A stretch of DNA of 64,000 nucleotides from Octopus vulgaris (Eukaryota), in the NCBI GenBank assembly GCA_951406725.2, contig OX597837.1, positions 62,001-126,000 of the forward strand, in the 5' to 3' direction. Position numbers and translations under genes: made by a program. Of this stretch, positions 55,396 to 60,614 are shown piece after piece. The first letter of the stretch is position 1. Each line of letters opens with the position of its first letter. The notes under the pieces are model-generated. The model worked only from the letters and a program-made list of their open reading frames with translations. It ran no database searches and was not told the origin of the DNA.

Positions 55396-55996
55396 TATAT
55401 GTATGTGTCACAAATACACATACATATATACACACACAAATATATATATATACATACTTACACACACATACATACATGGACACACATACTTACATATGTA
55501 TACATACATGCATGCATACAAGTATGTGTATAGATGCACATTTTCCACATACACACACCCACATATATATAAGAATATGTTCATATAAATGTATGTATAT
55601 GCATAATTACATACATACACAAACAAGTAGCTACGCACTGATATATATAGAAAGTATATATAAAAAACATATTCATGTTGACAGATGCACACACACACAC
55701 ACATACACACATACACAAACACTCAAACATACATTTATATATGCATGTGTATATGTTTATACATATATATACACATGTGTGTGTCTAAGTGTGTATATAT
55801 ATATGCATGTGTGTGTGTGTAGAAGTCACACCGGAATAAATGTATAAGTAAACGAATATATTCCTGTAAACTTTGTGCCCAGTCAACCGTGAAAAGTATA
55901 ATCGTGATTCCATTTCGTAATGTTCGGGCAATTATATTATCCATTGCTTTATTTACCGTCAATCTATCTTTGTATGTCAGTCTGTCTGTCTGTTTG

Positions 55997-56091
<95 letters not shown>

Positions 56092-56110
56092 CTCTTTCTC
56101 TCTATCTATG

Positions 56111-56151
<41 letters not shown>

Positions 56152-56167
56152 ATCTATCTATCTATCT

Positions 56168-57258
56168 GATGCGCAGACACGCGCTGAGACTGCGACTTCT
56201 CCGGCTCTATGTAGACGACGGTGAACAGGTGTGGTCGCCGTTTGTGAGGCACGCTTTCCCGCAGCTCGTCTCCATGACCGAACTGCAGTCGTGGATCAAA
56301 AAGAGGCCGAGGAAGGGCGAATGGCACCGCGAGTGTCGCGTTGCTCTCAAGCAACTCTGCCGTCTCGGGTCGACCTTGATTGACTTCAACACAACCAAAG
56401 CATTCTATGGGGGATTAGTGGAGGGGAGGTACGACGACGATCTTGGGGCAAACCTGGGCGTCGACGAGGAATACCTGACCCGCCTGTTTGAAACGACTTT
56501 CGGGCCGGGACCTATGGACAACTTCCAAAGATCTCTAGCCTGGCGGTGCTACCGAGAAGCGCTACCCGTTCGGGATAAGCTCTATAAGCATGGCTCGAGA
56601 AACACGGGGCCGACCTGCCCGAGATGCGGGCAGAGCGACGAAACCATTTTGCACGCAATCGTGCAGTGTCCAACAATCTCCGACCTGTGAGCTTATGTCG
56701 AACGACTGCTGTCACGTGTGGGACGTGTCGGTTTACCAGCCGAGTCTATCGTTAATATAGTCACGCCTCCTTCCTTCAAACGGGAAGGAAGAGCTATTTT
56801 CATCATACTTGTGGCTATGGCGAAAGAATGTATCTGGTGGACGCGCCTGAAAGGATTAGATACAAACACTTTCCTCTCTGGTCAATCACTCATCAACTTC
56901 TTCAAGTATCACTTGAAGAGGAAAGTGAGAGTAGAGAGGCAAGTTTTGTCTAGTGAATGTTTTAAAAAAAGATGGGTGAATGTAGCAAGGATGGCGCGTA
57001 TGAATGACGAAGCCACCTTGAGTATGATCCTATGAACCGTAAAAATTAATACAGAGAGTTGCTTATTTGTAAAAAAAATATAACATGTGACTTCATTGAC
57101 CGAGGTTACCGTGGTCTTTTCCGTAGGCTTTTCTTTCCACGGGTAAAACACACCTGTCTTCCCCTTTACACTTTATATTGACATTTCTGTGATAACGATC
57201 CCTATTGATCGATTTTTTCCTTTTGCTTTTATTTTTATACCCCCGCCCTTTTTTCCCC
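56168..57258 (+). mobile_element. Tx1/L1-clade retrotransposon, second 5'-truncated copy
   Basis: Nearly identical to ~8143-9225, with intact zf-RVT TCPRCGQSDETILHAIVQC and a premature TGA at 56688-56690. The 5' junction lies in (ATCT)n. Confidence 0.92.
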
Positions 57259-57259
57259 C

Positions 57260-58078
57260 AGCGACTGGTTAAAATTGACGAAATGCTCGAAATTAAAGAC
57301 GAAATATCTTACAACCTACAGAATTTTCTCAATAAAGCCACGAGAAAATGATGTTTTATAAACACATTCTACCAGTATACGAAGTTTAAAACTTTTTAGT
57401 TACCTAGAAATTATGTTACAAAGTGCCGTTCAAAAGGAAAAGATCCGGGCGGAGAAAGGGATTTCAAAACAAACGAATACAGACGCAAACATGAATGCCA
57501 GTACCACCACCATCACTACCACCACCAACAACATTGAAATCAGCACAAAGCCGCCCTCCGAAGACAGCACCACCAACACCAATACTACCACCACGACTTC
57601 AACTGCTACAACTAACTCCTCTACCACTAACAGCACCAAAAATAAAACAAACTTCGCGGAAGCGATAAAACAAAAGAAAACAATCGTAAAATTCACCGCG
57701 CAAGAAATAAACCACACAAAGGCACTCCTCACCAAAGAAGGAGATAAATTGCATCTCCACATTCCACAACACATCGTGCAAAACACACAAAAACAATAAT
57801 ATACAAAGTTATCAACAAGAAGACAAGACGACCAGAAAGTGCACCGCAGCAAAAAATTGAAAATACCTTCGCCCTGTATAGGATTCAAAGGAATACGTTA
57901 GTTGGTGGCATAAATTTGGCACAATCCAAGTAAGTTTCCACAATGAAAATCTAGCGAAACGATTTTCCACATTGGATCTGCATACAGATGACTTGGTGAT
58001 GATACCAACCTATTTAGGCCAGAGGATGACAAAAGTCACAATAAAAAATGTACCACCTGAAGTAGAAATACTGTATTC
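57260..58078 (+). pseudogene. Non-LTR ORF1 (gag-like) 5' fragment homologous to 4684-5534
   Basis: TNFAEAIK (cf. SYAQAA), KFGTIQVSF (cf. KFATVEVRF) and IPTYLGQRMTKVTIKNVPPEVEI (cf. SYCGKRATKVKIGKVPPELEV). Confidence 0.75.
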
Positions 58079-58603
58079 GTGTGTGTCTTCTAGGATCTCG
58101 GGCATCCTCCATCCGATTGCGCCCAAATTTGATATGTAGATACCGACGGTATCAGGACTGTATAAGTCTTGAAAAAAATTGCAAAATTCGATTCCAGGTG
58201 AGAATGCGATCGATAAAGGCGTTTTTGTCCTACCTTTCTTCCGTCAACCTGTACATAACTGCACCTGCCATTTTTTGTTGTTTTTGTACTGCTTAAAGGT
58301 ACGTTTCTTTCCTGCCAAGCTTACTGTTTAAACCATGTTTGTGTTCTCGTAGTCAACAGCCTTATCATTACTGGTACTTTAAACTCTTCGGTTGCATATT
58401 TGTGTGAATAAAATCGTTTTTCTTTGGAATAAAAAAAAAAGTCAATCTTTATTTCTTCTTTTGCTGGTGTTTCAAATTTAGGTTAAATTAGTGTTTCTCA
58501 AAGAGGAGGCATATGGGACGGTCGGACAAGTTGTTTTGAGAAAATTTGGTTTAAATATTTGGCAACTCAGCACCGCCCATTGGATGGGGGGGGCGTTTTG
58601 CTA

Positions 58604-58604
<1 letters not shown>
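58079..58604 (+). mobile_element. Non-autonomous Helitron-like element
   Basis: 3' hairpin CGCCCAT..ATGGG..GGGCG followed by TTTTGCTAG|T (CTAG at 58601-58604). Confidence 0.55.
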
Positions 58605-58635
<31 letters not shown>

Positions 58636-58637
<2 letters not shown>

Positions 58638-58977
58638 CGGAGATGTACTCGCATAGCAAGTAATTTGATCTGAGATCGTGTGCTGAAACGAAAACAATTG
58701 CAGCGTGGAAGGTGTTTATAAGCCATTTAAGAAACACACAAAAGCCGTTCGATTCACTTCAACATTTAAGTTTAATTTGTCAAAATATTTTCGTCGCTAA
58801 AATCCGCGACCTGTTCACTGACAAAGTCCGTGCTGCATCGGACTTTGTCAGTGAACAGGTCGCGGATTTTAGCGACGAAAATATTTTGACAAATTAAACT
58901 TAAATGTTGAAGTGAATCGAACGGCTTTTGTGTGTTTCTTAAATGGCTTATAAACACCTTCCACGCTGCAATTGTGT

Positions 58978-58980
<3 letters not shown>
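58636..58980. mobile_element. Perfect fold-back insertion (137-bp arms, 8-nt loop) in a TA microsatellite
   Basis: 58694-58830 is the exact reverse complement of 58839-58975. Unpaired ~58-nt tail at 58636-58693. Confidence 0.92.
58844..58893 (+). ncRNA. Minimal hammerhead ribozyme, G3-C8 variant (mirror copy at 58776-58825, - strand)
   Basis: TTTGTCA-GTGAACA-G-GTCGC(GGATTTTA)GCGAC-GAAA(ATAT)TT-TGACAAA: 7-bp stem I, 5-bp stem II and palindromic stem III. Confidence 0.8.
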
Positions 58981-59039
<59 letters not shown>

Positions 59040-60614
59040 CTAGCAGAGATACCCGGCATTGCTCGGGATTAAAACAACATAGTTTATATATATATTACGG
59101 TTATGTTGAAACATGTGATATGGAAATTGCACCATTGACGACAAAATATTTGTGGAGTAAATGATGGACTAATTCGACTAAGCGACATGTCATGCGACCG
59201 TTTCGAGTATTCCAGGCCTTAACCCGTCATGGAAAATTGGGGATAGGTTGTGTGTGATTTTTGAACGCACTGAAAAGCTGTCAGCGGATAGACTCTCCTT
59301 TGCGGCGGTTGTCGCTGCGTCTAACACGACCCATTGTTTGTTTGACAGTCGAATGAATGGATGTGCAATGGAGATATTGTACGTAAATGAATACACTCAG
59401 AAAAGGGGATGCAATAGGAGACGGCAACGGGGAAGTGAATAATTGAAATGTTGCAGAAGGCGAAGGATTGATACTGGATTGCTGGTGTGGCGTAGAATAA
59501 GAAACACAAACTGAGCCTATGCTGCAACATGAGAATATGTGGTAATGAATTACTTGAAAAAATGTGTAATGGCTTAACGCATGGTTGGTGGGAGTAATTG
59601 GAGAATATGCTTTGATATTAAAGTCCATGCAGGAAAATGCTTTGTTGATGCAGTCTCGGGGTTGTTGGTATTATGCCGAAATGGTATCCATCTTCACCAT
59701 TCACAAAGAGCAATGGATACTGGAGCACATCGTAGGATGTAGTAATTCCAAAAAACCTTTTGGTAAACAATATTCTTTGTTTCCTCTTGTGGAACAAATG
59801 CAAATAGACTCTTTTTGCTTCCCACTCTTGAGCAGCCAACATTTAATCGCTCGTGTGAGAAGTATGACTCTTCCAAGCGAAGTTCTACCACAGACAGTGT
59901 TTGACCCTGGGATATTTTGATAGACATTGCGAAGCTGATACGAATAGGAAATTGCACTCTTCTAATTGAAAAAAGAATTTCTGCTCCCAATGGAATGAGA
60001 GGGATTCTGGGTAAGAAAACATCCCCTCCTTTTCCACATCCAGAGAGAATGGTGGCCTAAATAACAAGTGGCATCATCTTCTTTACCACCGGGCGTGTCC
60101 TGTTGCAGAGTGTTGGTGGATCCAAACTTCTCAATAACATTACCAGAGTTCCATTCTGTGCGGATGTAATCTTGGAGGCTCCAATGAACTGAGAAATTCT
60201 GTTGGTTAATCTACCACCTGTTCTGGATCTGGGATTGTATCAATTGACTTATAAATGTGTGGACTTCCCGGTAGGTACCGCAGCAGCTGTTCATTAATTT
60301 TACTTGCAGTGCTATTTTTTGGAGCCGATTAAAATTGTGATAATATTTTGACCAATGGATGTAAGGAGACAATCAGTTTCTGAAAGTTACTTCGCAAAGA
60401 GTTACCTTCCTTCTCGACATAACCCAGGAACGGGTGTTTTCTGCTCTCAGGGGGCTCGTTTCTTATTATATGAAACATTTTAAGAGTCTAAAACCATCTG
60501 CGGAACGTAAACAATGTATGTTCCCAGTTTGGAGAAAATTAGTTGAAAAATACGGCCGTTATAATCTTTTACACACATACGCACATACAGACAGAACGGG
60601 ATTTATATTATAGA
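59040..60614 (-). mobile_element. Internally deleted Helitron with Pif1-helicase and Rep-region fragments
   Basis: - strand A|TC...hairpin CCCGAGCAATGCCGGG..CTAG|T. Encodes LPGSPHIYKSIDT..PTEFLSSL, LCNRTR, VFLPRIP, RVQFPIRISFAMSIKISQGQTL..FSH..CSRV, then SYDVLQYPLLFVNGEDGYH. Confidence 0.92.

Follow-up and report, generated by a model that had tools for sequence, protein, structure and literature searches.

A head-to-head pair of Penelope-like pseudo-LTRs in Octopus vulgaris carrying a G3-C8 variant of the minimal hammerhead motif

Within the window, by which we mean the whole 64,000-nucleotide stretch of Octopus vulgaris contig OX597837.1 that was analyzed, positions 58694 to 58830 and 58839 to 58975 are exact reverse complements of 137 bp each, separated by an 8-nt spacer (58831 to 58838). 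The perfect palindrome in a TA run described by the first-pass annotation is borne out, with zero mismatches between the arms and (TA)n on both flanks. The left arm is followed outward by 58 further element bases (58636 to 58693), and the right arm terminates in 4 non-element bases (58976 to 58979). Numbered from position 1 at 58838 on the minus strand, the long arm is a complete 203-nt pseudo-LTR unit (58636 to 58838, minus strand) that contains a hammerhead motif, the first 30 codons of an ORF and a tail. The 3' ends of the family are fixed at two places, unit positions ~145 and ~203, and the stretch between them is the 58-nt tail (58636 to 58693, minus strand). The short arm (58839 to 58975, plus strand) is an inverted pseudo-LTR covering unit positions 9 to 145 without the tail, and the unpaired spacer (minus strand) corresponds to long-arm unit positions 1 to 8, at the hot spot for 5' ends in the family. 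As read from the sequence, 1 nt at 58839 is common to both arms at their junction. The ORF, with its ATG at unit position 113, is the start of an RT-GIY-YIG frame (58636 to 58726, minus strand; translation of the natural tandem copy L070) that is cut off by the 3' end of the element.

The left (TA)n target run occupies positions 58605 to 58635 and the right one, followed by (GA)n, positions 58980 to 59021, neither assigned to a strand; inside the left run a target duplication is not definable. The TA run sits between two converging element ends (58570 to 58604, plus strand, and 59040 to 60056, minus strand). Each has a GC-rich hairpin followed by CTAG, as at the 3' ends of Helitrons. A fragment of the right-hand element (59694 to 60056) resembles the C terminus of PIF1 helicase, for which Pfam gave no match. 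The window also holds the C-terminal part of a LINE ORF2 (55908 to 57035, plus strand; zf-RVT match, E 1e-7), after which comes a threonine-rich open frame (57362 to 57799). Read-through RNA of the palindrome is predicted to form one long hairpin (-256 kcal/mol), in agreement with the earlier proposal that transcription through the locus would sequester the ribozyme. Folding of its transcript onto itself would render the locus inert, and it is probably an ordinary dead insertion.

Each arm contains a type I minimal hammerhead motif, one per strand (numbering after PMC4209133). The plus-strand motif spans positions 58844 to 58893, with G3 at 58851, C8 at 58856 and a predicted cut between 58886 and 58887; the same motif lies on the minus strand at 58776 to 58825, with G3 at 58818 and C8 at 58813. 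Its parts are a 7-bp stem I, the core GUGAACA with a single extra G after it, a stem II of 5 bp, GAAA and a stem III whose 4-nt loop is palindromic; positions 16.1/17 are UU. We found stems I and II, GAAA, A15.1-U16.1, H17 and G10.1-C11.1 as in the type I consensus, with G3 and C8 in the place of C3 and G8, and the swapped hammerhead annotated in each arm is thus present. The 3-8 pair is Watson-Crick, G-C here and C-G in homologues, with G·G, U·G and C·A as exceptions. Folding of the 50-nt motif reproduces stems I and II (z = -3.3; 1/200 shuffles equally good). The predicted fold pairs G3 with U17, lengthening stem I, and this pairing may trap an inactive form. A search of Rfam up to E 10 returned 16 matches and no hammerhead family among them; these were generic hairpins below gathering scores, such as mir-1295 with 47.9 of 100 bits. 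Searches built on CUGANGA would miss the variant, as had been suspected. Because the two motifs lie on opposite strands, a single transcript contains one motif and its antisense, and the two motifs of the palindrome cannot make an active dimer within one transcript.

The 2.8-Gb genome holds 920 candidates for the pseudo-LTR unit, and the 40 best scored of these, the window copy included, are 100% identical over 204 to 205 nt. The family is young, as had been claimed, and very common in the octopus genome. The absence of mismatches between the arms had been read as evidence of a very recent insertion; the recency rests more securely on these 40 identical copies, whereas identity over 137 bp only bounds arm divergence to less than ~2.2%. 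Upstream of a truncated PLE copy, at L031:6780-7080, a repeat from another family also forms an inverted repeat with an interruption.

The route to the parent element led through 7 of 30 unit loci that continue upstream into a 3' UTR, one of which reaches a coding region. In a search with that protein, the longest open frame among 150 scored matches of 8,756 candidates encodes 1,025 aa, with an RT YVDD motif, a C-x3-C-x2-C linker and a GIY-YIG domain at residues 915 to 1005 (E 1.8e-5, above cut-off). The RVT_1 profile matched only 3 of 12 aligned relatives and not the 1,025-aa query. The ORF protein has 84 homologues at E <= 1e-20; the best (54%), named from Octopus vulgaris, is encoded at 100% in this genome. 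A PDB sequence search with the ORF gave 0 matches. The unit follows the 3' UTR of the ORF in 29/30 ORF-selected loci, and in the tandem copies L069, L070, L075, L081, L082, L084 and L088 it continues into the ORF. This identifies the unit as the pseudo-LTR of a Penelope-like element with an endonuclease, and the Penelope-like family proposed from the palindrome now has its parent RT and GIY-YIG ORF.

The features of EN+ PLEs found here are a single ORF with RT and C-terminal GIY-YIG, partial tandems in which the pseudo-LTR includes the ORF start, an inverted 5'-truncated copy with an optional tail and a variable target duplication (10 to 12 bp in 3/30 loci, scored by eye outside TA runs). A CX2-5CxxC linker between RT and EN (C-x3-C-x2-C in the translation) and a (TA)n bias were found as well; these two features define Neptune/Nematis in the available sections of PMC8557442. 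Judged by linker and (TA)n bias, the element is assigned to the Neptune/Nematis type, a designation that does not tell the two clades apart. Naiad/Chlamys elements were rejected, as they need an N-terminal GIY-YIG and the domain is C-terminal here. A non-LTR retrozyme, which consists of head-to-tail units lacking an ORF, was rejected too: the locus is head to head and its unit belongs to an ORF-bearing element. In a retrozyme-like array elsewhere (L085, G000:C28:4994870-4997936) the short unit is repeated head to tail at least seven times, and the tandem motifs there could dimerize within one transcript.

We then asked how widely the G3-C8 core is shared. Genome-wide core patterns gave 5,080 matches, of which 4,682 have G3-C8, 274 have G3 with another base at position 8 and 124 are non-G3. 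These patterns fix neighboring bases, and a second sample was hence picked by ORF: the motif was present at 47/70 of these loci, with G3-C8 in 42 of the 47. Both samples agree with the claim that the family uses G3-C8. Between 17 older and the young ORF-selected copies, majority differences fell at 0/42 motif positions and 8/70 others (p = 0.02). The relatives differ at the core. The sister family (54% protein identity) has a homologous motif with C3-G8 and with A-U in stem II where the palindrome family has G-C; the strict descriptor missed this motif, which has C at position 9, and it was located by eye. A metagenome PLE (41%) likewise has a homologous C3-G8 motif, with a palindromic loop; the metagenome scan gave 2 loci from 96 candidates, one of them with a 3' UTR, and a motif search of viral contigs gave 0 matches. 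One copy of an old family has an identical stem II and a core that differs only at positions 3 and 8 (C3-G8). Since homologous C3-G8 motifs occupy the same place in relatives, the G3-C8 swap is natural, and the annotated double change that keeps the 3-8 pair holds in this sense. The sister family (L246, L247; P0001) is likewise a young PLE family. It has many frames of 1,311 aa that are intact, an insert rich in asparagine and the two-end design of the palindrome family.

The pair is less strictly kept than had been proposed. It is preserved within the family (the same 42/47), although a mobile G3·G8 sub-lineage and relatives with U3·G8 and C3·A8 speak against strict conservation. Up to 176 matches have G3·G8, as do 3/17 older ORF-selected copies; copies with G8 had no other diagnostic base in common. 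On C16, sampled members of a G3·G8 cluster have different junctions, and a G3·G8 master therefore went on inserting. These insertions cluster at ~1.2 to 9 Mb (G000:C16, L297 to L299), which suggests that a master whose core is mismatched hopped locally. In two old families, 49 aligned rows have U·G 28 times, C·A 7 times, C-G 6 times and other combinations 8 times at positions 3 and 8 (the rows come from 50 loci, one unaligned; counted among them are the two queries, two repeated loci and a few rows that are misaligned). This mixture in old relatives indicates that the 3-8 pair drifts. The old families (L301 to L350) consist of solo pseudo-LTRs related to the sister PLE, with ~970 and ~850 candidates, and have U3·G8 as their main core state beside a C3·A8 group. 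Counted by eye, C8-to-G changes are, in all loop subfamilies, about as common as C8-to-T (~41 versus 45 of 100 listed) and far above C8-to-A. A G3-C8 mutant is less active with C17 than with G17, according to the available part of PMC3884650. U17 is common to the palindrome family, the sister family and the old families, and it may have allowed the swap in this lineage.

Whether the motif cuts was approached through the 5' ends of truncated copies. Among young copies, 79 matches at positions 57 to 62 were collected, 17 rows with indels or duplications were dropped and the remaining 62 were counted by eye. Of these, 25 begin at 57, the predicted cut, compared to 22% expected under even truncation (p ~0.001). 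The count fell to 20/57 (p 0.015) once five switches that stem I homology explains were left out, and to 17/54 (p 0.06) once three more doubtful or paired rows were removed too. A script run on the first 30 loci, with no rows dropped, found 12 starts at 57. Pooling all subfamilies gave no clear spike at the cut, the excess coming from young subfamilies; the subfamilies include a 1-nt indel, and the 1-nt deletion subfamily dominates the control window for truncation rates, which was left out. In four small palindromes both arms begin at 57 or 58. The approximately twofold excess of starts at the predicted cut is a weak hint at cleavage, and the motif likely still self-cleaves weakly. Copies beginning at 57 are rare compared to copies beginning upstream of the motif, and as most copies begin upstream, they probably derive from uncut RNA (compare the available text of PMC11167929). 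The mobile G3·G8 sub-lineage suggests that cutting is dispensable.

The motif could instead be a hammerhead descendant that has lost catalysis and persists as a structural, promoter or protein-binding element of the pseudo-LTR, with G3-C8 reached by drift under relaxed selection. We regard this as the lesser but a serious possibility: it would account for the mobility of the G3·G8 sub-lineage, for U3·G8 and C3·A8 in old relatives, for a position 9 other than A in the sister family and for the predominance of insertions from uncut RNA, and insertion in vitro does not require cleavage, as far as the available part of PMC11167929 goes. Against it, two transversions recreated an exact Watson-Crick pair, the motif positions were spared the changes between older and young copies that were found elsewhere and 5' ends are in excess at the predicted cut. 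In keeping with a weakly cleaving motif, an engineered C3G/G8C double mutant restores cleavage partly (PMC8495972 and, in its available sections, PMC11167929).

The formation of the inverted pairs was analyzed in 85 loci, that is, 90 pattern-selected loci minus 5 (three second arms of one insertion and two tandem duplicates). The selection pattern requires an intact motif, so that the sample shows only 5' ends upstream of +15. An adjacent inverted partner was present at 53/85 loci. The head-to-head palindrome is the commonest insertion form of the family and not special, and that of the window is one recent, typical insertion, with a long arm of unit 0 to 203 and a short arm of 9 to 145. The 3' ends of the family cluster at 140 to 148 and 200 to 206, both within ~90 nt of the ORF start. 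Of 45 classifiable pairs, 43 combine a long with a short end (p = 6e-11), a further 8 pairs having an unclassifiable end, and 32 solo copies comprised 15 long, 14 short and 3 other 3' ends. In 43 pairs, the arm reaching at least 4 nt further 5' was the untailed one in 23 and the tailed one in 13, with 7 level. Simple folding back of a single cDNA is unable to yield the pairs whose untailed arm extends further, and the one-long-one-short ends best fit two separately primed cDNAs. Among the 85 loci, 50 5' ends lie at -4 to +3, 21 at +4 to +15, 6 at -14 to -5 and 8 further upstream (at least 15 nt). This cluster likely arose where reverse transcription, primed in the 5' pseudo-LTR, ran off its template at the start of transcription. 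In sequence, the hot spot itself (unit -4 to +3) looks like an initiator as well as like a splice acceptor and its branch point.

We thus propose that the RT-endonuclease would nick both strands of a (TA)n run and that each nick would prime reverse transcription at one of two internal sites, at unit ~203 and ~145. Primed in the 5' pseudo-LTR, the enzyme would run off the 5' end of the RNA, likely the transcription start at unit -2 to +2, and leave a stub, and the two cDNA ends would be joined head to head. The ribozyme would process tandem transcripts slowly, leaving uncut RNA as the source of most insertions. Two internal RT starts defining a tail were shown in vitro on sense RNA for an Anolis PLE, in the available part of PMC11167929.

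Self-priming by fold-back, for example on an antisense template, with the outer ends set later by endonuclease cutting, is a rather unlikely origin of the inverted arms. It was proposed for rotifer Penelope on an antisense template (PMC3846280, in the part available), and would fit the many junctions that overlap by 1 to 7 nt and those located at internal palindromes. However, either arm can extend further 5' (a pattern that later cutting of both ends would also allow), solo copies use both 3' ends about equally and RT initiation at two such sites was obtained in vitro on sense RNA, as just cited. A requirement of ribozyme dimerization for inverted pairs was rejected, because Naiads without canonical motifs make pairs too (PMC8557442, available sections) and the sister family has no palindromic loop. 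Finally, contigs of four sequencing runs cover the unit and none spans the palindrome locus, but an assembly artefact, or a foldback or MITE DNA transposon with a chance likeness to a hammerhead, is extremely improbable given the same design with differing junctions at so many loci, the asymmetric ends, the linkage of the unit to an RT-GIY-YIG ORF, the variable target duplications and the homologous motifs in three other families.

Taken together, we consider it probable that the palindrome is one recent insertion of two head-to-head pseudo-LTRs, likely from separately primed cDNAs, each with a natural G3-C8 hammerhead for which cleavage is predicted to be weak and confined to the dimer. The locus is an insertion product of a known class, and the ribozyme variant is modestly new. 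Our literature search found only engineered uses of G3-C8 (Lunse et al. 2017, outside the search, may hold natural variants) and nothing on this motif in octopus. Hammerhead surveys fix C3 and G8, or U3-A8, and a G3-C8 family of ~5,000 copies is invisible to them; elements said to have no ribozyme may need to be rescanned. The swap is a natural counterpart of the classic rescue mutant, beside C3-G8 relatives in the same genome, and with the one-long-one-short rule, the way in which inverted ends are made by Penelope elements can be tested by counting in genomes. More tentative, and in our estimate doubtful, is the full combination of a natural, lineage-wide G3-C8 hammerhead cleaving in vivo, with copies starting at the cut, and twin-primed Penelope insertions running off the RNA 5' end. 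If true, each internal start site would give one cDNA, on opposite target strands, with a run-off like retroviral strong-stop DNA; the lineage would record the swap path C3-G8, U3·G8, G3·G8, G3-C8, possibly permitted because U17 was already in place and a G3-C17 trap was thereby avoided.

The octopus motif resembles the minimal type I PLE hammerheads in the available sections of Cervera and de la Pena 2014 (PMC4209133) in its location within a pseudo-LTR, the extra base between 9 and 10.1, G10.1-C11.1, the tiny palindromic stem III, the lack of an obvious loop-loop contact, the mostly solo copies and the opposite-strand pairs. Unlike those, which in these sections have only C3-G8 and natural U3-A8, it has a G3-C8 core, a longer stem I (7 bp) and U at position 17. 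Natural covariation at 3-8 is shared with the U3-A8 hammerheads (Perreault et al. 2011, PMC3088659, as far as available); there the change is a transition pair, whereas in octopus it is a purine-pyrimidine swap. Similarly to PAc, the Poseidon element of Anolis (Frangieh et al. 2024, PMC11167929, available part), two RT starts inside the ORF start define a tail, the targets are AT rich and the hammerhead lies near the start codon. In contrast to PAc, the octopus tail is 58 nt, the protein has a Cys linker and the motif is ~50 nt upstream of the ATG; C3G/G8C in PAc is a partly active, engineered rescue, and G3-C8 in octopus is the natural state. The head-to-head inverted 5'-truncated copy, the one-sided tail and the (TA)n bias are those of Penelope insertions (PMC3846280 and PMC8557442, in the parts available). 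Compared to these insertions, the octopus locus consists of no more than two bare pseudo-LTRs, the one-long-one-short rule is backed by a count (43/45) and either arm can extend further 5'.
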